A stretch of DNA of 64,000 bases, from NCBI RefSeq assembly GCF_035084215.1, contig NC_090336.1, positions 29,264,001-29,328,000 of the forward strand. Reading direction: 5' to 3'. Source of the DNA: Heptranchias perlo. Lineage: Eukaryota. Made by a program: the position numbers and the translations under genes. Below, one piece after another: positions 1 through 47,633 of this stretch; the stretch's first letter is position 1, and the number at the start of each line of letters is the position of its first letter. The notes under the pieces are model-generated. The model saw nothing but the letters and a program-made list of their open reading frames with translations. It was not told the DNA's origin and did no database searches.

Positions 1-242
1 TCATTATTGTTTTGTTCCATTGTGGAGGTTTTCTGTGATTCCACATGAATAGAATCAAACATTATAAACAGTATAAACCCCATAGTGTAGAGGAACAGAA
101 ACAGCAGTGATAATGCTATTGGCCAATATTTAAAGAATAAACAGGTATTCAGTTGAGCACGATGCAACTTTAACAAAGGAGAAGTGTCATTATTTCTAAG
201 ATGGCATCGCATTAAAGACCCTTAGAATAATGCAGAATTGTT
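1..242. repeat. Partial unit of the 1.48-kb tandem exon-array, continuing beyond the window start
   Basis: Colinear with 7945-8189 and equivalent parts of other units, ending ...taatgcagaattgtt just before the provirus. Confidence 0.93.
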
Positions 243-253
243 CCCCCTACAAA

Positions 254-272
254 TGGCGACCCAGATGGGACT
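254..272 (+). promoter_or_regulatory. Primer-binding site complementary to the 3' end of tRNA-Arg(CCG)
   Basis: TGGCGACCCAGATGGGACT, 2 nt after the LTR end, is the reverse complement of the vertebrate tRNA-Arg-CCG end ...AGTCCCATCTGGGTCG-CCA (tRNA sequence recalled from memory). Confidence 0.85.
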
Positions 273-324
273 TTGGCAAAAGGGATGTGACACATTGGAC
301 ACTGATTTGGAAGAGAGAACTGTA

Positions 325-2076
325 ATGGAAGAGAGGATTTCAGATTATGTGTTCAGTAAGGTGAATATGGAAAAAAAATGGGTCACTAATCTGTTAAAGG
401 CTGGGCGCCCGGTAGATGCTGCAGCGAAATGGACAGGAGGGAAGGATCATAAAAAATCCATAGAAAAGGCAGTCTGGCTGATGTGCTTCAAGAAACAGAT
501 CCAGCTTTTGGACAGGCTCGTTGAAGCAAAGGCAGCTGATATTCGGCAGTCAACTCTTGAAGTCCAAATAAAGGCCCTATCAGGGGAGAAGTTACTGTTA
601 GCATTGCAGACTCTGAACCAGGAAAGGGTGCAGTTAGTGGGGGAGCATAAGACCCAGCAGGAATATTTACAGTGTCAGGTCACTGAGGCCAAGAACAACG
701 AGCTGAGGTTGCGGGAAAAGAATGCCCGCCTAGCAAGTCAAGTAAGAGAGCAGGAGGAGAAAGTAAAAGGCTTACAGGCAGCCTTTAAGATAGTGAGCGC
801 ACAGAGGTTTGAAGATACAGACCATGGCCCCTGCCAGAAGCAGATAGAGAGTCTGAACCTTGCTCTAAGGACGGCAAAAGGCATGGTATGCCTCATAAGC
901 CCTAGTGCAGCCCAGGTCGACTTCACAGGGAACCTGGGGAGAACGGTTCAGACACCACAGGTAGTGCCAAGGGACGACCTGGTTGAGGAGCAGGAGGGCC
1001 CACGACCACCACCCGTAGCGCCAAGCTTTAGCGAAATCTGGCAGGAGAGGGGGGTGGAATTAGGGGCAGAAGCAGAGGAGGAAAACCCCCAGCAAGAGAG
1101 GCTGGGACCGGGGCCGATGTGCCCGGCCCGGCAGCAAAGGTTCGGCCCGCCAGCTGGTAACGGGGATGAGGGACCCCTCCAAAACCAGTTCGTAGTTCCC
1201 CACGGCACCCAACAGCTTTGGGCCATGGTAAGCCATTTAACTAAACTTGCTGCAAATGGGGACCCCTCAGTCCACTTCAGGGAAGTGGAACAAGCAGCAA
1301 GCATCAACGAGTGCAATGATGCTGAACAGGCCAAAATGCTGCTATTCTCCCTGGAGAGTCAGCTCTTTCAGTCCCTCTCTGACCAATGAAAGATGGGACA
1401 GTGTGATTATGGGGAGCTCAAGGAGGAAGTTCTTGAGGCCATGGGGATGAATGAGGGAAGTCCTTTCTCCCGGGTGGAAAAAACAGTGCAGCTCGTAGGA
1501 GAAACCCCGCAGGCTTTTGCAGACAGGTTGTGGCCGGTGTATAGGAGCGCATGCAGTGGGATGCCTAACCGGGCTAACCTGGACCAGGATCAGCGGGCCC
1601 ACTGGCTCCGTTGCCTGGTGGCAAACAGCTTGCCACAGTTCAGGGCCACGGCAGGAATGTGGTTTGACCCAAAGAGTCCCCTGACTACCGAACTCACAGT
1701 GGTCAGACAATTGACCATAGCTTACCGTAATGGTAAAGGAACCGATGCACACCCACCTAAAGGGAAAGTGCATGAAATGAAACCCGGCCAGGGTAGGAAG
1801 GAGTGGCATCAGGAAGGGAATAACCCTTCCAGCACAAAACTCAACTGTTATGGGTGTGGGAAGGATGGACACTGGAGGAAGGAGTGTAAGAATCCTTGGA
1901 AAGATAACAAGGGAAAGAATTCCTCAACCCCAGCCCAGAAGGCAGAGACAGGAATCCCTCCCGCCACGGTCGAGTCATTTTTGGATGCCATGAGAACCCT
2001 ATTGACTGGCCCAGGGAAGGTAGCAGCCACCACCGGCGCTCTGACCCCATCAGCCCTATCTAACCCACAACCCTGA
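325..2076 (+). pseudogene. gag: gag (coiled-coil N-terminus, capsid-like region, CCHC zinc knuckle) with an internal stop at 1387-1389
   Basis: ORFs 238-1389 and 1393-2076 are in the same frame; CYGCGKDGHWRKEC = CX2CX4HX4C. The start is uncertain (ATG 253 overlaps the PBS; ATG 325 has good Kozak context). Confidence 0.85.
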
Positions 2077-5000
2077 CTGGAGACAGCGCAGCCTGTTTAC
2101 CTGTGTTCCCTTACCTACGACTTATGGAAGAGACCCCTCGTTGAGATGGAGGTAGAAGAGGTAAAGGGGACCTATCTGTTGGACACGGGAGCATCATGTA
2201 CCGTGATCCATTCAGCTAACCCCACCACCTCACCTCTATCTAACGGGGTCCCATACAGTCTGTCGGGATTCACAGGTAAAGAACAGGCTGGCTCATTTTA
2301 CATCCCGCTGAACATTCGTTTAGGAACACTCCGCTCTAAGTGGGCCTGTGTCCTAATGAAGTGGGAAGTGGAGGGTGGAAAAGGGATCCTGGGAGCCGAC
2401 TTTATTGTAGGCCACGGGATCCTAGTGGATTTGAGGAATCACTGCCTGTGGGGAGCAAATACAGGAAAGGAAGGCGGAGTAGTAGTCATCCCAGGGAAAC
2501 AGGGGAAGGGGACCCTGTGCACCATGAAGCCTCAAGAGGGTTATAACCTCGAACTCATGGTCAGCAATACCCCAAGGGAGTTCCAGGCATTTGTGCGAGC
2601 CCACCTAGCCACATTTGCCACACACAAACACGACTGTGGGAGGGTCAACGGGTTCGAGGTCAGTGTAGACGGGGACCCTATGGCCCGACCACAAAAGCAA
2701 TATAACTTCCCCAGGGAAGCGGAGCCAGACATGGAAGCAGCCATGTCCTCTTTAGTGCAACAGGGCGTCCTGAGACCGATAGCCACCCACGTGAACTCTC
2801 CACTGTGGCCGGTTAGAAAACCGGACAACTCCTGGAGGGCCACAGTGGACTATCGGGTGCTCATCAGTAACATCACAGCCTGTGCACCCACGGTAGCAGC
2901 AGTTGCCGACCTGATAGGAAGTATCCCAGCATCCGCGACCACTTTCACGGTGCTGGATATCTCCAACGGGTTTTGGTCCATCCCTTTAAGGAGAGAGGAT
3001 CAGTACAAGTTTGCCTTTACCTTTAAAGGGCAACAGTACACCTGGAACTGTCTGCCTCAGGGCTTCCACAATAGCCCCAGCATTTTCCACCAATGCATGG
3101 CAAACAGTTTAAAGGGCTTCAGCCAGCCCAGGCAGCTGGTACAATACGTGGATGACCTGCTCCTATTCACCGATTCGAGAGAGGAGCATGGCCCACTTCT
3201 GGCCGAACTGCTGGAACTGCTCGGGCAGGAAGGTTTTAAAGTGAACCGAAAGAAAGCACAGATTGACCAGCAGGAGGTGAAATTCCTGGGCCTGACAATA
3301 CGCGCTGGGGAAAGGGCCATAGATAAAGCTAGAAGGGAATCAGTACAGGAGTTACCAGTCCCCAACACAGTCATGGGAGTGAGATCGTTTCTAGGGCTAA
3401 CTGGGTACTGTAGAGACTTCGTTGAGGACTATGTGGCCACAGCAGCCCCTCTGCTCCGACTCCTGCATAAGGGAGTGGAGTGGGTTTGGGATGAGGGTTG
3501 CCAGGCAGCATTTGTCAGGCTCAAGAAAGATCTGCAGACCGCACCAGCTCTAGGGGCCATAGATGGAGGGAAAGAGTTCTTACTGGAGGTAGCAGCCAGC
3601 GGGGACAGCCTGAGTGCTGTGCTGCTCCAAGAGCGGCATGGCAAGCTGAGACCGGTGGTCTACTCCTCCAGGATACTCACAGATGTGGAGAAGAGCTACT
3701 CCAATTGTGAAAGGCACCTCTTGGCCACATATTGGGCTGTGAAAAGATCGCTGATCTTCACAGGCACCTCTCCCATCACCCTCCTCACCCATCACATGCC
3801 CACCCAGATGCTCCTGGACGGGAGAATCAAGGATGGGACAGTGAGCAGTGCCCGCATTGCTCGCTGGACCCTGCTTCTCTCACAGATGGACCTGAAAGTA
3901 AAAGGGCTCTGCGAGTCAAAGCTCGCAGCTAACCTGATATATCCTGGAACAGCCCACCGGTGTTCCATAGAAGGGGTTTGGGAAGTAAACATAGGTTTAC
4001 GGGCCGGGATACACCCCACAGGCCGTGAAATCTATGTGGATGGCTCCAGCACAGTATCTGCTGGTGAGCGACTCACAGGGTGTGGAGTTTATGACCCAGC
4101 GGCAAACCTTGCCCTGGCAATTAAGCTCCCCAGCACCATGAGCGCCCAGCAGGCTGGACTGTCCGCGGTAGTGTACGTGGTTACACACCCCGAGATCTTC
4201 CCCACCCCATACACGATTTGCTCGGACAGCATGTTCACATGCAATTCGTGTACAGAGTACCTGGCCATCTGGTCCCGCCGCGGATACACCTCCGCTGACG
4301 GGAGACCCCTCACAGTGAAACCCTTGCTGGAGAAAATCTTAGCAGCAGTGGGGGAGGAAGGGGAGGTTTTCATCCATAAGGTGAAAGCCCATTCCTCCGC
4401 AGAACCCCGGAGTGAGAGCAACCGGCAGGCCGACGTGCTAGCTAAGGAGGGTGCCCGCACAGGCACTTTCTGGGACCCATTTGGGTCCCGTCCTATAGCA
4501 GCAGTCACGGGTAGGAATGGGACACAGGGGAGTGCAGGGGTAGCTTTAACCCCGGACCTTAAGACGGTCCAAACCCAAGACCCCGTCCTCAAGGCAGTCC
4601 TCAGTGCAGTGGCAGAAGGGAAAAGGGTAGAGGGCCCTTACAGCACAGCAGTCCTCTCTGTAAAGGAGGGCATGCTGTTTAAGGGAGAGCAATGGGTTGT
4701 ACCGCAGCAGCACAGGAGGGAATTCCTTCAACTGGCCCATGAGGGTCCCGGAGCGGGGCATCCCGGGCCTGAGACCACCTGGCAGCGGGTGGAACAGGCA
4801 GGATGGTGGCCAGGACTCAGGGAAGATGTCCGCGAGTTCTGTGCCAGCTGTCTGGTGTGTGCTGCTAACAACCCTGACCCCCACAAAAGGAAAGTACCTA
4901 TGGGACACATCAGGAGGGTAGAGGGACCATGGCAGTCGATCCAGGTCCACTACATCGGGCCCCTACCCACCGCCCAGGGAGGCTATAAGTACTGCCTAGT

Positions 5001-5967
5001 CCTGGTGGATGTGTTCACAAAGTGGGTAGAAGCCTTCCCTTGTCAAACAGCCACGGCTATGAGTACAGCCAGGATCCTGGTCAGGGAGGTGTTCTCACGA
5101 TGGGGGCTACCACAGTACGTGGAGTCCGACCAAGGGAGCCACTTTACCGGGCAGGTCATGCAGAATACCCTTATGGTACTTGGCATAAAGGGGAAATGGC
5201 ACGTTGCACACAACCCACAGTCCTCAGGGATTGTAGAGAGGATGAACAGAACCTTGAAAGAAAGGCTGAGGAAAGAGACGGTAGACTCACCTAGAAAGTG
5301 GGTAGAAGTCTTACCGTTGGTCCTAATGGGGATCCGAGCCAGCCAGTCAAAAAGCACGGGGTATTCCCCACACGAGCTCATGACTGGTAGGGTTATGCGG
5401 ACCCCCACCCATGTGCTAGCCCCGGTGCTCACGGAGGGTCAGCTCAGAGAGGTGAACCGGGACAGCTTCGTCTGGAATCTGTTTGAACATCTTAAACAGG
5501 TTCACTGGCAGGCTGCTAGCAACATGGGAAAACAGCATCGGAGTAACCGACTGCTGTTAGAACCCCGTACGCACCACGAGTGGGAGATAGGGTATCAGGT
5601 TATGGTTAGGAATTTTGCTCGGGTAGGCAGTCTAGAACCATTATACATGGGGCCCTACAGCATTGTAGATAAGGCAAGCCCCATGGTATACGCCATAAAG
5701 CTGCCTAGGCGCACCAAATGGTTCCACATTAACCAATGTAAGTTGTTTAAATCGGAGAGAAGGGAACAGCCAGTTGGGGCAAGGCAAGGTCTGAGGATAA
5801 AAATCCTCAGCCCGCAGCAGGAGCAAACTCACAGACTGCACAAGCGGGTGCAATTACTTGTTTTAAGGGAAGGGCCATCCCACCCACCGTTTGGGACACT
5901 CCCCCGCTCATCTGGGACTCAGACGAGGTGGGACCTGAGGGCAGAGAGTTACCTGCCCCTGACATAG
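2077..5967 (+). CDS. pol: pol polyprotein: protease, RT, degenerate RNase H (tether), second RNase H, integrase
   Basis: LLDTGA (PR); LPQGF...YVDD (RT); LEVAAS...YSNCERHLLA (first RH lacking the catalytic Asp); IYVDGSS...CSDS...HKVKAHS...RQAD (second RH); H-H-C-C zinc finger, ESDQG and SSGIVERMN (IN). The frame is open from 2077 and matches gag. Confidence 0.93.
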   Translation: METAQPVYLCSLTYDLWKRPLVEMEVEEVKGTYLLDTGASCTVIHSANPTTSPLSNGVPYSLSGFTGKEQAGSFYIPLNIRLGTLRSKWACVLMKWEVEGGKGILGADFIVGHGILVDLRNHCLWGANTGKEGGVVVIPGKQGKGTLCTMKPQEGYNLELMVSNTPREFQAFVRAHLATFATHKHDCGRVNGFEVSVDGDPMARPQKQYNFPREAEPDMEAAMSSLVQQGVLRPIATHVNSPLWPVRKPDNSWRATVDYRVLISNITACAPTVAAVADLIGSIPASATTFTVLDISNGFWSIPLRREDQYKFAFTFKGQQYTWNCLPQGFHNSPSIFHQCMANSLKGFSQPRQLVQYVDDLLLFTDSREEHGPLLAELLELLGQEGFKVNRKKAQIDQQEVKFLGLTIRAGERAIDKARRESVQELPVPNTVMGVRSFLGLTGYCRDFVEDYVATAAPLLRLLHKGVEWVWDEGCQAAFVRLKKDLQTAPALGAIDGGKEFLLEVAASGDSLSAVLLQERHGKLRPVVYSSRILTDVEKSYSNCERHLLATYWAVKRSLIFTGTSPITLLTHHMPTQMLLDGRIKDGTVSSARIARWTLLLSQMDLKVKGLCESKLAANLIYPGTAHRCSIEGVWEVNIGLRAGIHPTGREIYVDGSSTVSAGERLTGCGVYDPAANLALAIKLPSTMSAQQAGLSAVVYVVTHPEIFPTPYTICSDSMFTCNSCTEYLAIWSRRGYTSADGRPLTVKPLLEKILAAVGEEGEVFIHKVKAHSSAEPRSESNRQADVLAKEGARTGTFWDPFGSRPIAAVTGRNGTQGSAGVALTPDLKTVQTQDPVLKAVLSAVAEGKRVEGPYSTAVLSVKEGMLFKGEQWVVPQQHRREFLQLAHEGPGAGHPGPETTWQRVEQAGWWPGLREDVREFCASCLVCAANNPDPHKRKVPMGHIRRVEGPWQSIQVHYIGPLPTAQGGYKYCLVLVDVFTKWVEAFPCQTATAMSTARILVREVFSRWGLPQYVESDQGSHFTGQVMQNTLMVLGIKGKWHVAHNPQSSGIVERMNRTLKERLRKETVDSPRKWVEVLPLVLMGIRASQSKSTGYSPHELMTGRVMRTPTHVLAPVLTEGQLREVNRDSFVWNLFEHLKQVHWQAASNMGKQHRSNRLLLEPRTHHEWEIGYQVMVRNFARVGSLEPLYMGPYSIVDKASPMVYAIKLPRRTKWFHINQCKLFKSERREQPVGARQGLRIKILSPQQEQTHRLHKRVQLLVLREGPSHPPFGTLPRSSGTQTRWDLRAESYLPLT

Positions 5968-6667
5968 GTTTAGAAGAGGTACAGCCTGAGGACAGAAATC
6001 CCCAGCCAGCGGCAGTGGAGATTCCACAGACCGCACAAGAGGGGACAGTGACTCGAGTTAAAGACTCACCAGCCAGAAAACCCCGACCAGCCAGAATCCC
6101 TAGAAGGCCCCCACGAACACCACGGCCAAAGAAACCGTGGTCACCGGCTCCCCAGTTTAAAAGGGCAGCCCCTCAAGTCAGGGATCGATCTGAGCACAGG
6201 GGTCCCCAGCCAGCAGCCGCAGGTTGCGAGGGACCAAAGGTACAGGACAGGGCAGCCACACCGAAGGGAGTAGTGTGTTGTAACCCGAACAGGGATTAGC
6301 CTGGCCGCCCGGGGACGGGCGGCGGATGTACAGAGCTTCTGTTATTTAATTTTGAGATTGTTAAGTTTGGGTGTTTTAGTTAAATTTTATACAAGGTGGT
6401 TGGTAGTTTAAGTATTATTGTTTACCGTGTATTACTTTTTCTATGTATGTACCGTATTTTCCAAGTGGTGCAGGGGTGTTGGACCCCCTCCGTGCTTGGA
6501 TATGAATGTAACTGAATTCTTACCTGTGTCTGCATCTGAACAGAATGTATGTTTTGGGTCTTAGATAGGTAAACTACAGGGGAAGGTTGGCTCTCGAGGA
6601 TCGAGAATTTTGCTCACCTTTGACCAGTATGAGACTTGAAGCAAGGTTAAAGTATCACAGGGGGGAG

Positions 6668-7851
6668 TGTAAGATTCTCAAAATTCACAGATCCCCCAGA
6701 GAAAAACCCTAAAGAAATTCACCTTTACCCTGAGTATGGGAAAACTTTGGCCATTGACTATCATCCTTAAATGGAAGGATAGTTGAGAGGTCACCAGACG
6801 AAATCAACAACACACACACCGTGGAACTTCGGAGAATTAATGCTTCAGACATGACTCTGTTTTAATGTAAAATCGACAGCAGGTGGTCGACACTCAGCAC
6901 GAATTCAAAAGGCCGTCTCCCATTGAAAGAGATAACTGTTCCAGACATGGTGGGGCCATTCCTTTGTTTAAAGCAAAACCATCAACACCTAGGACGTTGG
7001 ATACAAAAGGAAGCCTTATGTGACAAGCTCCAAATCAGAATTAAAACAATGACACATTGGGAGAAGCAATTTGCAATATGATTGGGACCATCAAAAGGCC
7101 ATCAAAGAACTTTGTATGAACTGTTTAAACAGACCATTGTAAGAGAGACAGCCACAAGGCAAAAGCTCTCTCTCTCTCTCTGGCTTGCTGGCTCTGATGG
7201 GCTGCTTGTGTTGGTTCTGCCTGTGTCTGGAAAGAAGAGCAGTTTGCAGTTTCCAGCAGACAACAAGGAAAGCAGTTCGACAGGGAAGGGCAGCAGCTCT
7301 AGAAGCTGGCCGAAAAACAAGAAGAGACCAGAGCAACAGCCCCAGTGACCGTCAGACACCTCGCGGCAACAAGGGCCTTACGAAACAACCAACCGAATAT
7401 TACCACCAACAAACCGGGTGATATTGAGCCACTGCGACCAAAGAAAACCAACTCGGGAGAAAACCGAAGATCCGCAAAGTTGCCACTCTACAATCTATTT
7501 CTGACTTACCTCTGGGTGAATTACTGTCAAGGTTTCGTTTGGTGAGAATTATCCCTGGTCTTTTAGAGTCCAACCCAGCTAGTACAGTGGGATTGGGAGG
7601 GGTGAGGTGTCCTTCTACTGTAATTTCCCTCGCGTGTACTGTAGTGTTCCCCATTTTATTAGAGTGTAAAGATTGTTGTGTTGTATTTCCTCTCTTGAAT
7701 AAAGGTCAAAGTTTCTTGCACCAAAATCAGTTGTCTGCTGCACTTTGTCACAACCCCCAAATAAGTCCAAGGTCTAGAACCCAGGGAGTGGGAGCGATTC
7801 GGACCGCTCAGAAGTCAGAGGTGAAGCTGACACACACCACCACCCCCTACA
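6668..7851 (+). repeat. 3' LTR (1184 bp)
   Basis: Starts TGTAAG directly after the purine tract, ends CCCCCTACA, has AATAAA at 7698-7703, and matches the inverted solo copy at 56231-57399. Confidence 0.93.
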
Positions 7852-7903
7852 TTCTTTATTAATCCCACCTTCTCTTTTTGAAATTTGATCCTTTGAGACT
7901 CAC

Positions 7904-7984
7904 CTCCTTCTTTGCGTTGATCATCTGCACCTTGCTCTATATTCCCAGTATTGTTTTGTTCTATTGGGGAGGTTTTCTGTGATT
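7904..7984 (-). CDS. Candidate tail exon type B (81 bp, phase 1/1; ESQKTSPIEQNNTGNIEQGADDQRKEG); representative copy
   Basis: Pyrimidine-rich tract plus AG, and donor G|GTGAGT. Other copies: 9381-9461, 10861-10941, 12338-12418, 13818-13898, 15295-15375, 16771-16848 (78 bp), 18237-18317. Confidence 0.55.
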
Positions 7985-8697
7985 CTCCATGAATAGAATA
8001 AAACACGATAAACAGTATAAACCCCATAGTGTAGAGGAACAGAAACAGAAGTGATAATGCTATTGGCCAATATTTAAAGAATAAACAGGTATTGCATTGT
8101 TGAGCACGATGCAACTTTAACGAAGGAGAAGTGTCATTATTTCTAAGATGGCATCGCATTAAAGACCCTTAGAATAATGCAGAATTGTTTCTCAGTGAGA
8201 ACACTTACTGCTCGTAGGCTTCTCTCGCTTCCCTGAATTTACCTCAGTCAACCGGCTTCAAATAATATTGGTGTAATTGCACAACTTGGTTATTCAAGTG
8301 CTCCAGTCAAGTTCCAGCACAATATTTGATTCTGATCCAATCATTGTGCACATACTGTACTTTTATGTAAGGATACATCAGTGGAGTTACCAGAAGAAAA
8401 TTACATCAATTCTGAATTTGAGAAAAGAGGAGATTCCTCTTGTCTGAATACGATGGCTCCTGTAACAATGCATCTTTCCATCAATAATGTACCGGGGTGT
8501 CAGTCAAGATCTATGCACACGTACGGAACAGGTCTTCAACACACTACCTTCTGACTGAGGGGCAAGAGTGCTGAATGAATCAACTAATATTTCCAGGAAT
8601 TTGGGAAGTCACACTGTGCAGACTTCATTTCCTGGACTACAAACAATTATTTTCTTCACTTTCAACATTAGATAAGATGTATCACCAAGTTTATTAC

Positions 8698-8811
8698 CTC
8701 CACCATCCTTTACACTTGTCTTTTGTTGTTCCTCAGTGCTTTGTGGATCAGGGTCAGTTTGTGCTGCCTTTTCTCCATCATCTGTTCCTCTTGTGTCCTT
8801 TGGCGTTGACA
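8698..8811 (-). CDS. Candidate tail exon type A (114 bp, phase 1/1; VSTPKDTRGTDDGEKAAQTDPDPQSTEEQQKTSVKDGG); representative copy
   Basis: Acceptor ttcctttgtttgagcgcag| and donor G|GTAATA. Other copies: 10175-10288, 11655-11768, 13132-13245, 14612-14725, 16088-16201, 17551-17664, all open and 114 bp. Confidence 0.6.
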
Positions 8812-11800
8812 CTGCGCTCAAACAAAGGAACGAACTTTCAGTTTTAATATTTCAATGGCTTTGAGCCAAGAAACCTCAACCCATTCAGACAATCTGAATT
8901 TTAGCTTCTGAAGTCCTGTAGTATTGCTGCACCAGTGGGAAAGCAGGGGAGAGGACACTTTATTCGCCTGAACAGACAATTTCAGACCCTGCCCCAGATG
9001 CCAGGGACAGGGGTTATCTGCATGGATGGGGAAGGCCACTGGAGGCTGCAAGGGTGCATGAGCAACACCCGCCCCGACATTGGCTCTGAACCGTGGAGTG
9101 GCGCCATTTCACTCCAGGGATAATAGAGGGAGCAAAAGTAGGACCCAATGAACAGGGTCATTTTTTTCATCATGGCTCTCAGTGTATTAAGGGATACAAT
9201 TTTAAAAGGGAATCATTCGCCTTTGGGATCAATTAGCTTTCTCTAACTGTAACACTTTCCTACATGTCTCACTTAAATAAGTGATGACATTGTTTTCTTT
9301 GGTCTATTACTTTTCCCAACATATTGTCTTCTTTATTAATCCCACCTTCTCTTTTTGAAATTTGATCCTTTGAGACTCACCTCCTTCTTTGCATTGATCA
9401 TCCGCACCTTGCTCTGTATTCCCAGTATTGTTTTGTTCTATTGGGGAGGTTTTCTGTGATTCTACATGAATAGAATAAAACACGATAAACAGTATAAACC
9501 CCATAGTGTAGAGGAACAGAAACAGAAGTGATAATGCTATTGGCCAATATTTAAAGAATAAACAGGTATTGCATTGTTGAGCACGATGCAACTTTAACGA
9601 AGGAGAAGTGTCATTATTTCTAAGATGGCATCGCATTAAAGACCCTTAGAATAATGCAGAATTGTTTCTCAGTCAGAACACTAACTGCTCGTAGGCTTCT
9701 CTCGCTTCCCTGAATTTACCTCAGCCAACCAGCTTCAAATAACATTGGCGTAATTGCACAACTTGGTTATTCAAGTGCTCCAGTCATGTTCCAGCACAAT
9801 ATTTGATTCTGATCCAATCATTGTGCACATACTGTACTTTTATGTAAGGATACATCAGTGGAGTTACCAGAAGAAAATTACATCAATTCTGAATTTGAGA
9901 AAAGAGGAGATTCCTCTTGTCTGAACACGATGGCTCCTGTAACAATGCATCTCTCCATCAATAATGTACTGGGGTGTCAGTCCAGATCTATGCACAAGTA
10001 CGGAACAGGACTTCAATACACTACCATCTGACTGAGGGGCAAGAGTGCTGAATGAATCAACTAATATTTCCAGGAATTTGGGAAGTCACACTGTGCAGAC
10101 TTCATTTCTTGGACTACAAACAATTATTTTCTTCACTTTCAACATTAGATAATGTGTTTCACCAAGTTTATTACCTCCACCATCCATAACACGTGTCTTT
10201 TGTTGTTTCTCAGTGATGTTTGGATCAGGGTCAGTTTGTGCTGCCTTATCTCCATCATCTGTTCCTCTTGTGCCCTCGCAAATTGACACTGCGCTCAAAC
10301 AAACGAAACAACTTTCAGCTTTAATATTTCAAAGGCTTTGAGACAAGAAACCTCAACCCATTCAGACAATCTGAATTTTAACTCCTGAAGTCCTGTTGCA
10401 TTGCTGCACCAGTTGGAAAGCAGGGGAGAGGACACTTTATTCGCCTGAACAGACAATTTCAGACCCTGCCCCAGATGCCAGGGACAGGGGTTATCTGCAT
10501 GGATGGGGAAGGCCACTGGAGGCTGCAAGGGTGCATGAGCAACACCCGCCCCGACATTGGCTCTGAACCGTTGGGTGGCACCATTTCACTCCACGGATAA
10601 TAGAGGGAGCAAAAGTAGGACCCAATGAACAGGGTCATTTTTTTTCATCTTTGGCTCTCAGTGTATTAAGGGATACAATTTTAAAAGGGAATCATTCGCC
10701 TTTGGGATCAATTAGCTTTCTCTAACTGTAACACTTTCCTACATGTCTCACTTAAATAAGTGATGACATTGTTTCCTGTGGTCTAATACTTTTCCCAACA
10801 TATTATCCTCTTTATTAATCCCACCTTCAGTTCTTTGCTTATTGTTCTTTTGAGACTCACCTCCTGCTTTGCATTGATCATCTGCACCTTGCTCTGTATT
10901 CCCAGTATTGTTTTGTTCTATTGGGGAGATTTTCTGTGATTCTCCATGAATAGAATAAAACACTATAAACAGTATAAACCCCATAGTGTAGAGGAACAGA
11001 AACAGAAGTGATAATGCTATTGGCCAATATTTAAAGAATAAACAGGTATTGCATTGTTGAGCACGATGCAACTTTAACGAAGGAGAAGTGTCATTATTTC
11101 TAAGATGGCATCGCATTAAAGACCCTTAAAATAATTCAGACTTGTTTCTCAGTGAGGTTACTATCTGCTCGTAGGCTTTTCTCGGTTCCCTGAATTTACC
11201 TCAGTCAACCAGCTTCAAATAATATTGGCGTAATTGCACAACTTGGTTATTCAAGTGCTCCAGTCAAGTTCCAGCACAATATTTGATTCTGATCCAATCA
11301 TTGTGCACATACTGTACTTTTATGTAAGGATACATCAGTGGAGTTACCAGAAGAAAATTACATCAATTCTGAATTTGAGAAAAGAGGAGATTCCTCTTGT
11401 CTGAATACGATGGCTCCTGTAACAATGCATCTTTCCATCAATAATGTACCGGGGTGTCAGTCAAGATCTATGCACACGTACGGAACAGGTCTTCAACACA
11501 CTACCTTCTGACTGAGGGGCAAGAGTGCTGAATGAATCAACTAATATTTCCAGGAATTTGGGAAGTCACACTGTGCAGACTTCATTTCCTGGACTACAAA
11601 CAATTATTTTCTTCACTTTCAACATTAGATAAGATGTATCACCAAGTTTATTACCTCCACCATCCTTTACACTTGTCTTTTGTTGTTCCTCAGTGCTTTG
11701 TGGATCAGGGTCAGTTTGTGCTGCCTTTTCTCCATCATCTGTTCCTCTTGTGTCCTTTGGCGTTGACACTGCGCTCAAACAAAGGAACGAACTTTCAGTT

Positions 11801-14800
11801 TTAATATTTCAATGGCTTTGAGCCAAGAAACCTCAACCCATTCAGACAATCTGAATTTTAGCTTCTGAAGTCCTGTAGTATTGCTGCACCAGTGGGAAAG
11901 CAGGGGAGAGGACACTTTATTCGCCTGAACAGACAATTTCAGACCCTGCCCCAGATGCCAGGGACAGGGGTTATCTGCATGGATGGGGAAGGCCACTGGA
12001 GGCTGCAAGGGTGCATGAGCAACACCCGCCCCGACATTGGCTCTGAACCGTGGAGTGGCGCCATTTCACTCCAGGGATAATAGAGGGAGCAAAAGTAGGA
12101 CCCAATGAACAGGGTCATTTTTTTCATCATGGCTCTCAGTGTATTAAGGGATACAATTTTAAAAGGGAATCATTCGCCTTTGGGATCAATTAGCTTTCTC
12201 TAACTGTAACACTTTCCTACATGTCTCACTTAAATAAGTGATGACATTGTTTTCTTTGGTCTATTACTTTTCCCAACATATTGTCTTCTTTATTAATCCC
12301 ACCTTCTCTTTTTGAAATTTGATCCTTTGAGACTCACCTCCTTCTTTGCATTGATCATCCGCACCTTGCTCTGTATTCCCAGTATTGTTTTGTTCTATTG
12401 GGGAGGTTTTCTGTGATTCTACATGAATAGAATAAAACACGATAAACAGTATAAACCCCATAGTGTAGAGGAACAGAAACAGAAGTGATAATGCTATTGG
12501 CCAATATTTAAAGAATAAACAGGTATTGCATTGTTGAGCACGATGCAACTTTAACGAAGGAGAAGTGTCATTATTTCTAAGATGGCATCGCATTAAAGAC
12601 CCTTAGAATAATGCAGAATTGTTTCTCAGTCAGAACACTAACTGCTCGTAGGCTTCTCTCGCTTCCCTGAATTTACCTCAGCCAACCAGCTTCAAATAAC
12701 ATTGGCGTAATTGCACAACTTGGTTATTCAAGTGCTCCAGTCATGTTCCAGCACAATATTTGATTCTGATCCAATCATTGTGCACATACTGTACTTTTAT
12801 GTAAGGATACATCAGTGGAGTTACCAGAAGAAAATTACATCAATTCTGAATTTGAGAAAAGAGGAGATTCCTCTTGTCTGAACACGATGGCTCCTGTAAC
12901 AATGCATCTCTCCATCAATAATGTACTGGGGTGTCAGTCCAGATCTATGCACAAGTACGGAACAGGACTTCAATACACTACCATCTGACTGAGGGGCAAG
13001 AGTGCTGAATGAATCAACTAATATTTCCAGGAATTTGGGAAGTCACACTGTGCAGACTTCATTTCTTGGACTACAAACAATTATTTTCTTCACTTTCAAC
13101 ATTAGATAATGTGTTTCACCAAGTTTATTACCTCCACCATCCATAACACGTGTCTTTTGTTGTTTCTCAGTGATGTTTGGATCAGGGTCAGTTTGTGCTG
13201 CCTTATCTCCATCATCTGTTCCTCTTGTGCCCTCGCAAATTGACACTGCGCTCAAACAAACGAAACAACTTTCAGCTTTAATATTTCAAAGGCTTTGAGA
13301 CAAGAAACCTCAACCCATTCAGACAATCTGAATTTTAACTCCTGAAGTCCTGTTGCATTGCTGCACCAGTTGGAAAGCAGGGGAGAGGACACTTTATTCG
13401 CCTGAACAGACAATTTCAGACCCTGCCCCAGATGCCAGGGACAGGGGTTATCTGCATGGATGGGGAAGGCCACTGGAGGCTGCAAGGGTGCATGAGCAAC
13501 ACCCGCCCCGACATTGGCTCTGAACCGTTGGGTGGCACCATTTCACTCCAGGGATAATAGAGGGAGCAAAAGTAGGACCCAATGAACAGGGTCATTTTTT
13601 TTCATCTTTGGCTCTCAGTGTATTAAGGGATACAATTTTAAAAGGGAATCATTCGCCTTTGGGATCAATTAGCTTTCTCTAACTGTAACACTTTCCTACA
13701 TGTCTCACTTAAATAAGTGATGACATTGTTTCCTTTGGTCTAATACTTTTCCCAACATATTATCCTCTTTATTAATCCCACCTTCAGTTCTTTGCTTATT
13801 GTTCTTTTGAGACTCACCTCCTGCTTTGCATTGATCATCTGCACCTTGCTCTGTATTCCCAGTATTGTTTTGTTCTATTGGGGAGATTTTCTGTGATTCT
13901 CCATGAATAGAATAAAACACTATAAACAGTATAAACCCCATAGTGTAGAGGAACAGAAACAGAAGTGATAATGCTATTGGCCAATATTTAAAGAATAAAC
14001 AGGTATTGCATTGTTGAGCACGATGCAACTTTAACGAAGGAGAAGTGTCATTATTTCTAAGATGGCATCGCATTAAAGACCCTTAAAATAATTCAGACTT
14101 GTTTCTCAGTGAGGTTACTATCTGCTCGTAGGCTTTTCTCGGTTCCCTGAATTTACCTCAGTCAACCAGCTTCAAATAATATTGGCGTAATTGCACAACT
14201 TGGTTATTCAAGTGCTCCAGTCAAGTTCCAGCACAATATTTGATTCTGATCCAATCATTGTGCACATACTGTACTTTTATGTAAGGATACATCAGTGGAG
14301 TTACCAGAAGAAAATTACATCAATTCTGAATTTGAGAAAAGAGGAGATTCCTCTTGTCTGAATACGATGGCTCCTGTAACAATGCATCTTTCCATCAATA
14401 ATGTACCGGGGTGTCAGTCAAGATCTATGCACACGTACGGAACAGGTCTTCAACACACTACCTTCTGACTGAGGGGCAAGAGTGCTGAATGAATCAACTA
14501 ATATTTCCAGGAATTTGGGAAGTCACACTGTGCAGACTTCATTTCCTGGACTACAAACAATTATTTTCTTCACTTTCAACATTAGATAAGATGTATCACC
14601 AAGTTTATTACCTCCACCATCCTTTACACTTGTCTTTTGTTGTTCCTCAGTGCTTTGTGGATCAGGGTCAGTTTGTGCTGCCTTTTCTCCATCATCTGTT
14701 CCTCTTGTGTCCTTTGGCGTTGACACTGCGCTCAAACAAAGGAACGAACTTTCAGTTTTAATATTTCAATGGCTTTGAGCCAAGAAACCTCAACCCATTC

Positions 14801-17800
14801 AGACAATCTGAATTTTAGCTTCTGAAGTCCTGTAGTATTGCTGCACCAGTGGGAAAGCAGGGGAGAGGACACTTTATTCGCCTGAACAGACAATTTCAGA
14901 CCCTGCCCCAGATGCCAGGGACAGGGGTTATCTGCATGGATGGGGAAGGCCACTGGAGGCTGCAAGGGTGCATGAGCAACACCCGCCCCGACATTGGCTC
15001 TGAACCGTGGAGTGGCGCCATTTCACTCCAGGGATAATAGAGGGAGCAAAAGTAGGACCCAATGAACAGGGTCATTTTTTTCATCATGGCTCTCAGTGTA
15101 TTAAGGGATACAATTTTAAAAGGGAATCATTCGCCTTTGGGATCAATTAGCTTTCTCTAACTGTAACACTTTCCTACATGTCTCACTTAAATAAGTGATG
15201 ACATTGTTTTCTTTGGTCTATTACTTTTCCCAACATATTGTCTTCTTTATTAATCCCACCTTCTCTTTTTGAAATTTGATCCTTTGAGACTCACCTCCTT
15301 CTTTGCATTGATCATCCGCACCTTGCTCTGTATTCCCAGTATTGTTTTGTTCTATTGGGGAGGTTTTCTGTGATTCTACATGAATAGAATAAAACACGAT
15401 AAACAGTATAAACCCCATAGTGTAGAGGAACAGAAACAGAAGTGATAATGCTATTGGCCAATATTTAAAGAATAAACAGGTATTGCATTGTTGAGCACGA
15501 TGCAACTTTAACGAAGGAGAAGTGTCATTATTTCTAAGATGGCATCGCATTAAAGACCCTTAGAATAATGCAGAATTGTTTCTCAGTCAGAACACTAACT
15601 GCTCGTAGGCTTCTCTCGCTTCCCTGAATTTACCTCAGCCAACCAGCTTCAAATAACATTGGCGTAATTGCACAACTTGGTTATTCAAGTGCTCCAGTCA
15701 TGTTCCAGCACAATATTTGATTCTGATCCAATCATTGTGCACATACTGTACTTTTATGTAAGGATACATCAGTGGAGTTACCAGAAGAAAATTACATCAA
15801 TTCTGAATTTGAGAAAAGAGGAGATTCCTCTTGTCTGAACACGATGGCTCCTGTAACAATGCATCTCTCCATCAATAATGTACTGGGGTGTCAGTCCAGA
15901 TCTATGCACAAGTACGGAACAGACTTCAATACACTACCATCTGACTGAGGGGCAAGAGTGCTGAATGAATCAACTAATATTTCCAGGAATTTGGGAAGTC
16001 ACACTGTGCAGACTTCATTTCTTGGACTACAAACAATTATTTTCTTCACTTTCAACATTAGATAATGTGTTTCACCAAGTTTATTACCTCCACCATCCAT
16101 AACACGTGTCTTTTGTTGTTTCTCAGTGATGTTTGGATCAGGGTCAGTTTGTGCTGCCTTATCTCCATCATCTGTTCCTCTTGTGCCCTCGCAAATTGAC
16201 ACTGCGCTCAAACAAACGAAACAACTTTCAGCTTTAATATTTCAAAGGCTTTGAGACAAGAAACCTCAACCCATTCAGACAATCTGAATTTTAACTCCTG
16301 AAGTCCTGTTGCATTGCTGCACCCGTGGGAATGCAGAGGAGCGGACACTATATTCGCCTGAACAGACAATTCCAGACCCTGTCCCAGATGTCAGGGTCAG
16401 GGATCTTCGACATGGATGGGGAAGGCCACTGGAGGCTGCAGGGTGCATGAGCGACACCCGCCTCGACATTGGCTCTGAACATTGGAGTGGCACCATGTCA
16501 CTCCGAGGATACTAAAGGGAGCACAGGAAGGACCCCTAGAATGGGGCCATTTTTTTCATTTTTGGCTCTCAGTGTATTAAGGGATACAATTTTGAAAGGG
16601 AATCATTCACCTTTAGGATCAATTAGCTTTATCTAACTGTAACATTTTCCTAAATGTCTCACTTAATTAAAAGAGGCCTTTTTTCCTTCGGTCTAATACT
16701 TTTCCCAACATATTATCTTCTTTATTAATCCCACCTTCAGTTCTTTGCTTATTGATCCTTTGAAACACACCTTCATTGCATTGATCATCTGCACCTTGCT
16801 CTGTTTTCTCATTATTGTTTTGTTCTACTGTGGAAACTTTCTGTGATTCTACATGAATAGAATAAAACACTATAAACAGTATAAACCCCATAGTGTAATG
16901 GAGCAGAAACAGGAGTGATAATATCTTTGGCCAATATTTAAAGAATAAACAGGTGTTCAGTTGAGCACGATGCAACTTTATCACAGGAGAAGTGTCATTA
17001 TTTCTAAGATGGCATCGCATTAAAGACCCTTGAAATAATGCAGACTTGTTTCTCAGTGAGGTTACTATCTGCTCGGAGGCTTTTCTCGGTTCCCCAAATT
17101 TACCTCAATCAACCAGCTTCAAATAATATTGGCGTAATGGCGCAGCTTGGTTATTCAAGTGCTCCAGTCATGTTCCAGCACGATATTTGATTCTGATCCA
17201 ATCATTGTGCACATACTGTACTTTTATGTAAGGATACATCGGTGGAATTACAGAAGAAAATTACATCAATTCTGAATTTGTGAAAAAAGAGATTCCTCTG
17301 GTCTGAATACGATGGTGCCTGTAACAATGCATCTTTCCATCAATAATGTACTGGGGTGTCAGTCGAGATATATACACAAGTACGGAATAGATCTTCATCA
17401 CACGGCCTTCAGGGAATACAGTATTGAATGAAGCAACTAATATTTCCAGGAATTTGGGAAGTCACACTGTGCAGACTTCATTTCCTAGACTACAAACAAT
17501 TATTTTCTTCACTTTCAACATTAGATAAGGTGTTTCACCAAGTTTATTACCTCCACCATCCTTTACACTTGTCTTTTGTTGTTCCTCAGTGCTTTGTGGA
17601 TCAGGGTCAGTTTGTCCTGCCTTTTCTCCATCATCTGTTCCTCTTGTGTCCTTTGGCTTTGACACTGCGCTCAAACAAAGGAACGAACTTTCAGTTTTAA
17701 TATTTCAAAGGCTTTGAGCCAAGAAACCTCAACCCATTCAGACAATCTGAATTTTAGCTTCTGAAGTCCTGTAGTATTGCTGCACCAGTTGGAAAGCAGG

Positions 17801-18992
17801 GGAGAGGACACTTTATTCGCCTGAACAGACAATTTCAGACCCTGCCCCAGATGCCAGGGACAGGGGTCATCTGCATGGATGGGGAAGGCCACTGGAGGCT
17901 GCAAGGGTGCATGAGCAACACCCGCCCCGACATTGGCTCTGAACCGTTGGGTGGCACCATTTCACTCCAGGGATAATAGAGGGAGCAAAAGTAGGACCCA
18001 ATGAACAGGGTCATTTTTTTTCATCTTTGGCTCTCAGTGTATTAAGGGATACAATTTTAAAAGGGAATCATTCGCCTTTGGGATCAATTAGCTTTCTCTA
18101 ACTGTAACACTTTCCTACATGTCTCACTTAAATAAGTGATGACATTGTTTCCTTTGGTCTAATACTTTCCCCAACATATTATCCTCTTTATTAATCCCAC
18201 CTTCAGTTCTTTGCTTATTGTTCTTTTGAGACTCACCTCCTGCTTTGCATTGATCATCTGCACCTTGCTCTGTATTCCCAGTATTGTTTTGTTCTATTGG
18301 GGAGATTTTCTGTGATTCTGCATGAGTCGAATAAAACACTATAAACAGTATAAACCCGCTAGTGTTGAGGAGCAGAAACAGTAGTGATAATGCCATTGGC
18401 CAATATTTAAAGAATAAACAGGTATTCAGTTGAGCACGATGCAACTTTAACGAAGGAGAAGTGTCATTATTTCTAAGATGGCATCGCATTAAAGACCCTT
18501 AGCATAATGCAGACTTGTTTCTCAGTGAGAACACTAACTGCTCGTAGGCTTCTCTCGCTTCCCTGAATTTACCTCAGTCAACCAGCTTCAAATAATATTA
18601 GTGTAATTGCACAACTTGGTTATTCAAGTGCTCCAGTCATGTTCCAGCACGATACTTTATTCTGATCCAATCATTCTGCACATACTGTACTTTTATGTAA
18701 GGATACATCAGTGGAGTTACCAGAAGAAAATTACATCAATTCTGAATTTGAAAAAAGAGGAGATTCCCCTCGTCTGAATACGATGGCTCCTGTAACAATG
18801 TATCTTTCCATCAATAATGTACAGGGGTGTCAGTCGAGATATATGCACAAGTACGGAATAGGACTTCAATACACTATCATCTGACTGAGGGGCAAGAGTT
18901 ACCGAATGAAGCAACTAATATTTCACGGAATTTGGGAAGTCACAATGTTGTATATGCATTCAAGTCTGCACAATTATTGTTTTCACTTTCAT

Positions 18993-20525: not shown

Positions 20526-23250
20526 ATTCAATTCCTGGACTACAAACAATAGTAGATAAGGTCTTTCACCAAATTTATTACCTCCACTGTCCTTTGCATT
20601 TATGTTTTCTTGTTTCTCAGTATTGTGAGCATCAGGGTCACAATACTGCCTTATATATATCACCTGTTTCTCTTGTGTCCTCTGCCTTTGACACTGCAAC
20701 AGACAGAGCACAGGAAGGACCCAATGCACAGGGTCATTTTTTACATCTTTTGCACCCAATGTATTAAGAGATACAATTTTAAATGGGAATTGTTGACCTT
20801 TGGAATCAATTAGTTTTATCTGACACTCTCCTGAATGTCTCACCTTAAATATATGATGATATTTTTTCATTAGGTCAGATATTTACCCAACATATTGTCT
20901 TCTTTATTAATCTCACCTTGAGTTCCTTGCTTATTGATCCTTTCAAACTTGCCTTCTTCATTGCAGCGATCATAGGAACATTGGAACATCGTAACAGGAG
21001 TAGGCCATTCAGTCCCTCGTGCCTGCTCCGCCATTTGATAAGATAATGGCTGATCTGTGCTCTAACTCCATATACCTGCCTTTGGCCCATATCCCTTAAT
21101 ACCTTTGGCTGCCAAAAAGCTATCTATCTCAGTTTTAAATTTAGCAATTGAGCTAGTATCAATTGCCGTTTGCGGAAGAGAGTTCCAAACTTCTACCACC
21201 CTTTGTGTGTAGAAATGTTTTCTAATCTCGCTCCTGAAAGGTCTGGCTCTAATTTTTAGACTCTGCCCCCTACTCCTAAAATCCCCAACCAGCGGAAATA
21301 GTTTCTCTCTATCCACCCTATCTGTTCCCCTTAATATCTTATAAACTTCGATCAGATCACCCCTCAACCTTCGAAACTCTAGAGAATACAACCCCAATTT
21401 GTGTAATTTCTCCTCGTAACTTAACCCTTGAAGTCCGGGTATCATTCTAGTAAACCTACACTGCACTCCCTCCAAGGCCAATATGTTTTCCGAAGGCACA
21501 GTGCCCAGAATTGCTCACAGTACTCCAGGTGCGGTCTAACCAGGGTTTTGTATAGCTGCAGCATAACTTCTGCCCCCTTGTACTCTAGTCCTCTCCATAT
21601 AAAGGCCAGCATTCCATTAGCCTTATTGATTATTTTCTGCACCTGTTCATGACACTTCAATGATCTATGTACCTGAACCCCTAAGTCCCTTTGGACATCC
21701 ACTGTTTTTAACTTTTTACCATTTAGAAAGTACCCTGTTCTATCCTTTTTTGATCCAAAGTGGATGACCTCACATTTGTCTGCATTGAATTCCATTTGCC
21801 ACTGTTTTGCCCATTCACCTAATCTATCAATATCCCTTTGTAATTTTATGTTTTCATCTACACTGCTTATAATCAATACCTTGCTCTGTTTTCTGAATAT
21901 TGCTTTGTTCTATTGCGGGGGGTTCCTGTGATTCTACATGAATAGATAAAAACAATATGAACAGTATAAACCCCATAGTGCAGAGGAGCAGAAACAGCAG
22001 TGATAACGCTATTGACCAATACTGAAAGAGTAGGCATGTATTCTGTTGAGCACGATGCAACTTTATCAAAGTAGAAATGTCGTTATTTCTCAGATTGGCG
22101 CCACATTAAAGACCCTGACAATAATCCAGAATTGTTGCTCACTGAGAATATTATCTGCTGGTCGGATTCACTCTCTGCAATTAATTTTCCTCAGTCAACT
22201 AGCTTCAAATAGTATTGGCAGAATTCCACAACTTGGTTCTTCATTTGCCCCATTTAGGTTCTAGCTTGATATTTTATTCTGATCTAACCATTGTGCAAGG
22301 ATGATGTAAGGATACATCAGCGGAGTTCTCAGTAGAAAATTTCATCAATTCTGAATTTGAGAAAAGAGGAGATTCCTCTAGTCTGAATACGATGGCTGCT
22401 GTGACAATGCAATTTTCCATCAATAATGGACTGGGGTGTCAGTCGAGATATTTGCTCAAGTCCTGGAATAGGACTTCAACACACTACCTTCTGTCTCAGA
22501 GGCAAGAGTATTTCCAGGAATTTGGGAAGTCACACTGTGCAGACTTCAATTCCTGGACTACAAACAATTCTTTTTTTCACTTTCAATAGTACATAAGGTG
22601 TTTCACCAAATTTACTACCTCCACCATCCTTTACATTTGTTGTCTTTTCTTGTTTCTCAATACTGTATACATCAGGGTTATTTTGTGCTGCCTTAACTCC
22701 ATCGCCTGTTTCTTTTGTGTCCTCTGCCTAGACACTGCACTCAAATAAAGGAAAAGACTTCCAGGTTTAATGTTTCAACGGTTTTGAGACAAGAAACCTC
22801 AACCCATTCAGACAATCTGAACTTTAGCTCCTGAAGTCCTGTTGCATTGCTGCACCAGTGGGAAAGCAGAGGAGCGGACACTATATTCGCCTGAACAGAC
22901 AATTTCAGATCCTGTCCCAGATACCAGGGACAGGGATCTTCGGCATGGATGTGGATGTCCCCTGTAGGCTGCAAGGGTGCATGAGCAACGCCCGTCCCGA
23001 CATCGGCCCTGAACCTTGGATTGGCACCATGTCACTCCGAGGACGGTAGAGGGAGCGCATCTTTGGTTTCCAGTATATTAAAATGAAAGAAGGGCTTGCA
23101 TCTATATAGCGCCTTTTACAACCTCAGGACGTCCCGAAACGCTTCACAGCTAATGAAGTACTTTTGAAATTTAGTCACTGAAGTAATGTAGGAATTAAGG
23201 GATACATTTTAAAAGGGCAATCCTACACCTTTGGGATCAGCTAGCTTTAG
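20526..23250. repeat. Diverged, TE-disrupted distal units of the exon array
   Basis: Same unit blocks but more divergent. Exon-A copies are 112 bp (20582-20693) and 116 bp (22619-22734); the exon-B copy is split by a CR1. Confidence 0.88.
20972..21870 (-). mobile_element. 5'-truncated CR1 LINE inserted within an exon-B copy
   Basis: ORFs 21062-21499 and 21442-21876 encode the CR1 RT C-terminus; the flanks rejoin as ...EQGID|RCNEE. Confidence 0.88.
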
Positions 23251-27563: not shown

Positions 27564-27668
27564 CTGATTCAGTTTCGGTTAATTTTTGCACAGCACTTGT
27601 CTCTGCCTTAGGGTCCGGTGATTTACTCTTCATTAATGATTGCGATTCTTCATCACCTGGATTGAGGC
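27564..27668 (-). CDS. B7-H6-like gene, cytoplasmic exon (GLNPGDEESQSLMKSKSPDPKAETSAVQKLTETES), 105 bp, phase 1/1
   Basis: Acceptor tttgtattctatctag| and donor G|GTAAGC; in frame with the TM exon; hydrophilic. Confidence 0.7.
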
Positions 27669-31700: not shown

Positions 31701-31970
31701 CGGCCACATTGTTGTGGGTTTGGAGTCACATATAGGCCAGACCGGGTAAGGACGGCAGTTTTCCTTCCCTCAAGGGCATTAGTGAACCAGATGGGTTTTT
31801 ACGACAATCCGGTAGTTTCATGGCCACCCTTACTGATACTTTAATTCCAGAATTTATTTAATTAATTGAATTTAAATTCCCCAGCTGCCATGGCAGGATT
31901 TGAACTCATGACTTTGGATTATTAGTTCAGGCCTCTGGATTACTAATCCAGTAACATAACCACTATGCAA
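28753..31970 (-). mobile_element. Non-LTR retrotransposon (CR1/L2-group EN-RT, frameshifted) with a tRNA-like 5' head
   Basis: APE motifs (ILTET, WVGDFN, LDLVLTN, SDH) and RT motifs (YRPISLL, GVPQGSVLGP, FADD); 3' tail ...gcaattagggatggg...cccacatccc; A/B-box-like sequence at ~31880-31970. Confidence 0.88.
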
Positions 31971-34672: not shown

Positions 34673-34783
34673 CTTTTGAACTTTTTCTCCAAATGTAAAT
34701 TCCAAAGCCAAGTGCTGCGCATATTAACACAGCACCGACTATAGCTGCAACAACATTTGAACGGCCCCTGGATCCTGTAAATT
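34673..34783 (-). CDS. NCR3LG1: B7-H6-like gene, transmembrane exon (EFTGSRGRSNVVAAIVGAVLICAALGFGIYIWRKSSK)
   Basis: Acceptor ttttctactcttag| and donor G|GTAAG; 111 bp, phase 1/1; ~22-aa hydrophobic helix followed by the RK stop-transfer. Confidence 0.85.
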
Positions 34784-37375: not shown

Positions 37376-37696
37376 CTCGTACAGTGAGTAAAGATTCCAT
37401 TGTGAAATCATCAGGAAATGTTGGGTGCCTCACTACACATCTGTACTTGTCACCATCATCATTCATTGTTGGTTGAATCCTCAGTTGACTGTAAACACTA
37501 AATGTTTTATCACTATTTATGACAAAAGCATTTGTATATTTATCTAACGAAACATTTTCTGTTCTCCATCCTGATATCTTGACCCAGTGGATGTCTAGCT
37601 GCCGAGGATAAAATCCAGTAACATCACATCCCACAGAGTCCTCAGACCCACTCTGGATTGTAATGGATTGTGCGGATAAGCTGATCTTTGGTTGAG
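37376..37696 (-). CDS. NCR3LG1: B7-H6-like gene, IgC1 exon
   Basis: CDVTGFYP, W, NSDKTFSVYSQL and YRCVVRH C1-set motifs; 321 bp, ttttctacacag| ... G|GTAAG, phase 1/1. Confidence 0.88.
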
Positions 37697-41433: not shown

Positions 41434-41772
41434 CTAACACCTGCATTTCTGAAGTCTGTTCTGCTTTTTCAGGGGTTATGTACACAATGCAAGTGTATCT
41501 TCCTTCATCTGCTAACTGTACTTTCGGAAGATAAAGTGAAGCATCTCCTTTCAGTAGATCACTTTCAGAAATGTGTGCTTCAGGTCGCGTTTGTAAATGT
41601 TTTCCTCCCGCAAACGAATACACTTTTGTTTGTTTGTTAAGGATCCATTCGATTCCTACCTTTCTTAGGTCGATGTTGGCACCAACATAGCCCGTTACCT
41701 TGCATTTCAGTTGAACATTTTCATTTACTAATACTTTCAGTGGGCTTTGAAATATCTCCAGGCCTATGGTTT
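41434..41772 (-). CDS. NCR3LG1: B7-H6 (NCR3LG1)-like gene, IgV exon
   Basis: VQLKC...GIEW...KVYSF.G...RPEAHIS...GDASLYLPKVQLADEGRYTCIVYITPEKA parallels the B7-H6 V domain ([29 protein letters not shown], recalled). 339 bp, phase 1/1, tttttaaag| ... G|GTAAG. Confidence 0.85.
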
Positions 41773-47584: not shown

Positions 47585-47633
47585 CTGATGTTGAAATAAA
47601 TGATACAATAAAGCACAAAGTCAAAGTTTCCAT
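47585..47633 (-). CDS. NCR3LG1: B7-H6-like gene, signal-peptide exon (METLTLCFIVSFISTS)
   Basis: aggATGG Kozak context, hydrophobic core, 49 bp ending G|GTAAGG; splices in frame to the V exon (G+AA = E). Confidence 0.75.

Follow-up and report, generated by a model that had tools for sequence, protein, structure and literature searches.

Tandem repeats behind a B7-H6-like gene of Heptranchias perlo as candidate exons of a repetitive cytoplasmic tail

Repeat-exon tails in the B7/butyrophilin superfamily are described for the chicken BG genes, which form a tandem cluster and carry tails of 13-36 small repeated exons, with multi-exon blocks that expand and contract, probable unequal crossing-over, exon skipping and intron read-through (PMC4046983, PMC5043582). 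Human B7-H6 (NCR3LG1) is placed at 11p15.1 in PMC2715080, and PMC8983885 treats Plekha7-Nucb2-Kcnj11 as a conserved block. Here we analyze 64,000 nucleotides of the shark Heptranchias perlo (contig NC_090336.1, positions 29,264,001 to 29,328,000, forward strand; "the window"), in which a tandem array lies behind a minus-strand gene with IgV, IgC1 and transmembrane (TM) exons. Each ~1.48-kb unit of the array holds two exon-like segments, A and B. A first-pass annotation had read them as tail exons of a B7-H6-like gene and knew of no repeat-exon tail in B7-family genes; the second statement is wrong for the superfamily, given the BG tails described in the two accounts above.

We propose that A (38 codons) and B (27 or 38 codons) are recently amplified phase-1 exon types that are likely spliced onto T1, the first tail exon of the array gene. 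To this reading we assign a probability of roughly 0.68. That at least some array exons enter the mRNA of the gene appears probable to about the same degree.

Exon-like segments of the array and their homologues

Self-comparison reveals units of 1469-1480 bp on the minus strand and, inside the array, a young 2957-bp dimer repeat whose two copies differ at 2 positions. Unit U3 matches U5 at 100% and U4 matches U6 at 99.9%; the 15 segments collapse to about 4 independent unit types. A occurs seven times, always at 114 nt, and B eight times, in all but one case at 81 nt; every copy has AG..GT borders, is in phase 1/1 and is free of stops. A check of coordinates bore out the earlier placement of these segments, their borders, the phase shared with the upstream exons and their open frames; the proposed lengths of 114 and 81 nt hold for 14 copies. 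The remaining B copy, starting at 16848, would measure 78 nt if ended at a weak GTGTGT donor (16771-16848), and an end at 16735 (114 nt) is more likely, since B' copies of a paralogue with the same 3-nt loss splice at the later donor in its RefSeq model. The array and its segments are as follows.

7852..18991, minus strand, tandem array of ~1.48-kb units with the young dimer repeat (self-comparison)
18237..18317, minus strand, B exon 1, 81 nt, CAG / GTGAGT (borders, orthologue profile, joined frame)
17551..17664, minus strand, A exon 1, 114 nt, differing at 3 positions from A in the paralogue RefSeq model
16735..16848, minus strand, B exon 2, probably in its long form of 114 nt (78 nt via the weak donor at 16771)
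16088..16201, minus strand, A exon 2
15295..15375, minus strand, B exon 3 (borders, orthologue profile)
14612..14725, minus strand, A exon 3
13818..13898, minus strand, B exon 4, GAG acceptor, likely weak
13132..13245, minus strand, A exon 4
12338..12418, minus strand, B exon 5
11655..11768, minus strand, A exon 5
10861..10941, minus strand, B exon 6, GAG acceptor, likely weak
10175..10288, minus strand, A exon 6
9381..9461, minus strand, B exon 7
8698..8811, minus strand, A exon 7
7904..7984, minus strand, B exon 8, GAG acceptor; read-through meets a stop at 7815-7817 within a long terminal repeat (LTR) element

The exon identity of A and B is supported by the borders used in the RefSeq model of a paralogue and, for B, by in-register homology to the tail repeat of an orthologue; this part of the earlier proposal is supported. 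A second V-C1-TM gene with its own signal-peptide (SP) exon lies beyond the left end of the window, and behind it more A and B copies occur 42-97 kb beyond that end. Searching proteins with the B frame gave 1 match among 2064 candidates, RefSeq XP_067849687.1, and an A-profile search of 1.84 billion representatives returned the same protein as its single match. Every letter of this protein can be placed on the paralogue, 20-84 kb past the window, with the splice order TM-L-B-A-B'-B-A-B'-Ig-L-C-B(old)-C-end, an A of 38 residues and a B of 27, AG/GT borders as in the array, and two truncated A copies skipped. Array exons A1 and A3 differ from the A of the model at 3 of 114 nt and have an identical donor; the A donors and 4 of the 8 array B acceptors equal those used in the model. 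Donor-less old B copies were considered as terminal exons, a reading rejected since the RefSeq model has a longer internal exon in their place. Alignment of A with the long form of B is weak (2 of 500 shuffles) and gives only a hint of common ancestry. The paralogue also has a plausible SP exon (window coordinate -14525) and an open V exon, yet XP_067849687.1 begins at a Met near the V end.

Orthologues were sought with the V exon (7 accepted of 56 candidates) and with the ectodomain (12 of 912). A V+C1 tree of 14 rows, namely 3 paralogues of this genome and 11 database proteins with two outer paralogues left out, groups the array gene with proteins of Chiloscyllium, Mustelus, Scyliorhinus and Cetorhinus (support 100/99). 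Seven Chiloscyllium plagiosum isoforms (X12-X20; XP_043561695-703) display a V-C1-TM order followed by 10-13 tail units, mostly of 27 aa, and differ from one another by whole units. The first residue of one unit is R or G according to the preceding unit, as a phase-1 split codon would give. An ungapped 27-column profile from 13 distinct Chiloscyllium units was run over ~528,000 six-frame windows of 264 kb, and the top 12 are all B copies, including 7 of the 8 in the array, starting at their acceptors in register 0. Their scores are 32-37, falling to 6 or less at one to four codons off register, and 2 and 0 of 5000 residue shuffles equalled the B score. In the Mustelus and Scyliorhinus orthologues, T1 is followed by an Ig-like domain, and their tails carry this domain repeated, with short linkers; horn shark and sawshark relatives carry C1-set repeats after the TM.

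The gene upstream and the predicted tail

The exons of the gene, together with older A and B copies lying between T1 and the array, are given below.

47585..47633, minus strand, SP exon with ATG, 49 nt, phase 1 donor; N-termini of proteins P0003/P0004 are similar
41434..41763, minus strand, IgV exon, 330 nt (Pfam V-set; PDB matches B7-H6 and CD276)
37376..37696, minus strand, IgC1 exon, 321 nt (Pfam C1-set, E 6.5e-13)
34673..34783, minus strand, TM exon, 111 nt, 54% identity to the TM of the Mustelus orthologue
27564..27668, minus strand, T1 (first tail exon), 105 nt, encoding ESQSLM, a dileucine-like acidic motif; 45-46% identity to T1 of Mustelus and Scyliorhinus
22619..22734, minus strand, old A copy, 116 nt, frameshifted, AG/GT kept
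21880..21933, minus strand, old B copy, disrupted by a LINE fragment, with 54 in-frame nt before a GT
20582..20693, minus strand, old A copy, 112 nt, frameshifted with stops, AG/GT kept

Joining SP, V, C1, TM, T1 and the 15 array segments by script yields an open frame of 798 codons, of which the array contributes 492, in line with the stop-free copies of the first-pass annotation. All exons from SP through the array are in phase 1, hence gain, loss or skipping of any unit leaves the frame intact. The 492 array residues include 106 D+E and 56 K+R; A and B contain 3-8% hydrophobic residues, and Tyr is absent from T1, A and B, confirming the acidic, Tyr-free character expected of these peptides. 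Disorder of the tail was judged from amino-acid composition alone.

T1 is kept in the orthologues, which display ELQNLL, EKQSFL and ESQSFL where ESQSLM stands here. The dileucine pattern was widened to accept F and M and so finds 1-5 matches per protein, while the strict consensus fits Chiloscyllium only. By that consensus the T1 motif is a weak candidate for an adaptor-binding or sorting site.

Unequal crossing-over would have changed the copy number of the array, and, if it is spliced, weak B acceptors together with exon skipping would produce a ladder of tails of up to ~490 residues after T1. The short exons that stand between cytoplasmic Ig-like domains in relatives would here have been multiplied without those domains. 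The product might be an acidic, likely disordered, Tyr-free cytoplasmic spacer of variable length behind a membrane-proximal sorting motif, and such a tail could serve not to signal but to tune trafficking of the ligand, its surface residence or its spacing. The 3' end would most likely arise by reading through from a late exon as far as a stop, or else by termination at the antisense LTR element, at which the array breaks:

243..7851, plus strand, LTR retroelement with gag/pol ORFs that splits the array and runs antisense to the gene; its 5' LTR is nearly all missing
1..242, minus strand, resumed unit sequence, with a B copy starting at 40 that has a GG acceptor

A flanking deletion accompanies the element where the array is broken at 7851, and unit sequence runs on past it at 1-242 and further left. 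The element gives gag-like, RT, two RNase H-like and integrase matches. Of its 5' LTR only 9 nt are left ahead of a sequence resembling a primer site, and 56231-57401 holds a related solo LTR. Among other repeats, the intron after T1 holds 104 copies of a 25-bp minisatellite (24259-26854), and more long minisatellites occur at window-coordinate 65.6-84.2 kb. Just upstream of the SP exon (48407-50766), a weak Myb/SANT-like match and an unassigned ORF are probably mobile-element remnants.

Constraint, transcripts and alternative explanations

The first-pass annotation had also expected frame to be preserved preferentially in the exonic parts. None of the 15 copies carries a frameshifting indel, and to this extent the expectation stands; the statistical bias is not significant. 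Among array units there are 11 indel events, 8 of them non-triplet, and 0 of these 8 are exonic where exonic sequence makes up 13% (P 0.32). The figure is 0 of 14 (P 0.12) once paralogous copies are included, and 2 of 18 (P 0.52) when the old 22.6-kb copy is counted too. The comparison of indel spectra between exons and the rest of the unit, suggested as a check, thus returns no significant depletion of frameshifts, with copies that are not independent (~4 unit types). Exonic indels are triplets in 2 of 2 cases, those elsewhere in 2 of 16 (Fisher P 0.039, or 0.048 when the old copy is included).

Several observations besides this lack of significance weigh against the splicing of A and B in the array gene. 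The density of variable sites is 14% in A and B as compared to 14% and 11% outside, with no purifying signal. Changes in the 4 A and 6 B haplotypes, from which gapped copies were excluded, comprise 33 non-synonymous and 3 synonymous ones (7.2 expected, P 0.045), while stop changes number 0 where 2.1 are expected (P 0.10, not significant). Positive selection on A and B was considered and rejected, the non-synonymous excess being too marginal (one of six frames tested). In 4 of 4 scored units, a 168-169-nt segment that contains stops outscores A and B in a small splice matrix, built from 14 donors and 12 acceptors. B acceptors are GAG in 3 of the 8 array copies (13898, 10941, 7984), the copy at 40 has lost its AG, and the old A copies at 22619-22734 and 20582-20693, outside the range first annotated, are both frameshifted. 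The eighth array B copy ranks only 35 in the profile search, with 71 of 5000 shuffles equalling its score, and A scores 6.4 with the Chiloscyllium profile, which is no match. Homology and a splice-matrix scan from the array to the paralogue SP exon found no terminal exon for the gene, and three homologue searches plus the profile search surfaced no protein model of it. RefSeq models are themselves predictions without visible read support, in which near-identical exons can yield false isoforms.

Three RNA runs from the same sample displayed no junction; depth was ~1 or less in the bins with C1 and SP. They contain 0.00 of the words of 15300-18990, and a single 32-base chance piece fell on 26870-28700, with none covering T1, all of which is uninformative either way. 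RNA on 27900-47800 was swamped by repeats, and no exon joint appeared among the best 15 of 310 joints. The 168-169-nt segment (15634-15802 and its equivalents) is present in each unit, has an AG and a GT that look strong, is closed by stops in each of the three frames, and could be a poison exon.

Much of this pattern would also be met if A and B were true exon relics, dead or dying at this place: a block shared with the paralogue tail would have been amplified neutrally as a satellite, with the gene ending soon after T1 or its transcript being unstable. The lack of amino-acid constraint, the frameshifted A copies directly behind T1, the spread of GAG acceptors by the dimer repeat, the cutting of the array by LTR insertion and deletion, and the terminal exon and gene model missing from the searches all point in this direction. 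Against it, the frame is open from SP to T1 and through all 15 copies, the orthologue retains a homologous repeat tail right after its TM region, and the A donors and half of the B acceptors are those of the paralogue model. Low-complexity tails are moreover often weakly constrained, and no selection signal is reported for the BG1 tail (PMC5043582). We regard decay as unlikely, albeit the most serious of the competing explanations.

Improbable to a greater degree is an extension of the gene past the array and the paralogue 5' exons to the downstream Ig-like, L, C and terminal exons, by which the array would be the first part of a longer shared tail. The Ig-like domain that follows T1 in Mustelus and Scyliorhinus has its best matches here (63%) 55 and 94 kb beyond the window start, all exons are in phase 1, and the sole terminal exon found is downstream; however, SP, V, C1 and TM exons of the paralogue itself intervene, and the RefSeq model gives those downstream exons to it. 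The least credible explanation, to which we attach very little weight, is a plain satellite, intronic or intergenic, in which AG/GT pairs and open frames arose by chance. Each unit does contain ~100 AG and ~90 GT dinucleotides and a higher-scoring non-coding pair, and the copies are not independent. Yet A and B are homologous to protein-coding exons, B being in register with the orthologue repeat and both being used in the paralogue model, and a unit query outside the contig of the array (C12) yielded, among 25 matches, only 4 short weak ones. The profile and the model largely refute an origin by chance, and recently amplified tail exons remain the preferred reading of A and B.

The B7-H6-like cluster and comparison with known systems

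The array gene combines an IgV and a C1-set domain (Pfam) with a predicted SP and a single TM in type I orientation, which is the layout of B7-H6. In PDB comparisons, its V exon matches B7-H6 at 49.5 bits in one stretch and CD276 at 54.8 over two stretches, while for C1 the best non-antibody named match is B7-H6, ranked below several Ig chains. One orthologue bears the RefSeq name NCR3LG1-like. Five related C1 exons across C12:29.08-29.40 Mb correspond to five V-C1 paralogues; KCNJ11 lies 97 kb beyond the last of these exons in convergent orientation, and an RPS13 exon lies ~1 Mb the other way, upstream. We take the human order at 11p15.1 to be B7-H6 with KCNJ11 on one side and RPS13 on the other, and a KCNJ11-adjacent cluster fits B7-H6 ancestry. 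A Gag-homologous tail with Tyr motifs is a feature of the human form that is absent here, and we therefore call the gene B7-H6-like, one of five paralogues.

Several C1-type Ig domains follow a single TM in the paralogues at C12:29.12-29.14 and 29.36-29.37 Mb and in their relatives from skate, sawfish, sawshark and horn shark. These domains are apparently cytoplasmic, which would be unusual and possibly more surprising than the array. For a divergent Ig-like tail domain of ~140 residues (L006:4804-5229; C12 ~29.170 Mb), which Mustelus and Scyliorhinus carry in repeated form, Pfam gave no convincing match.

If the array is spliced, an apparent satellite would be an expandable coding module, and a BG-type repeat-exon tail would have a second, likely independent origin in the B7 superfamily. 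The B7-H6-like cluster, which appears ancient, has members with very different tails (repeats, cytoplasmic Ig-like domains) and unrelated RefSeq names, and what B7-H6 tails do can therefore be tested by comparing them. As a tentative wider picture, shark B7-H6-like tails may be modular, with phase-1 linkers and cytoplasmic Ig-like domains reshuffled and re-amplified by lineage; the still-expanding array would then be expressed as a ladder to ~490 residues that varies between individuals and tunes trafficking, convergent with BG under diversifying pressure. Our literature search gave no account of repeat tails in shark B7-H6-like genes, though the main evolutionary B7H6 papers, outside that search, may cover them.

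Set against its described relatives, the array gene stands apart by its 15 copies in a young 1.48-kb array. The Chiloscyllium orthologue XP_043561695-703, named "ribosome-binding protein 1-like", has a 27-aa repeat tail of B-like units only, and in the paralogue XP_067849687, named "aspartic and glutamic acid-rich protein-like", 6 A/B exons precede an Ig-like domain that is cytoplasmic. With human B7-H6 (PMC2715080) the gene shares a V plus C1-type ectodomain, a phase-1 exon layout and a KCNJ11-adjacent locus; the human tail is Gag-homologous with tyrosine motifs, whereas the one predicted here is built of repeated exons and Tyr-free. Like chicken BG, it has a B7-type V ectodomain, a TM, a long repeat-exon cytoplasmic tail (its array-exon splicing being predicted) and a place in a tandem cluster, and its repeated exons change in copy number, with 15 copies here, 6 in the paralogue and 10-13 units per orthologue isoform. 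BG exons are 21-24-nt heptads, presumed to form a coiled coil, behind a single V, whereas those here are 81-114 nt, acidic and poor in hydrophobes, in a V-C1 gene linked to KCNJ11. The locus is no new class of system: the array gene works like BG and, by exon size, composition and ectodomain, is not a BG member.

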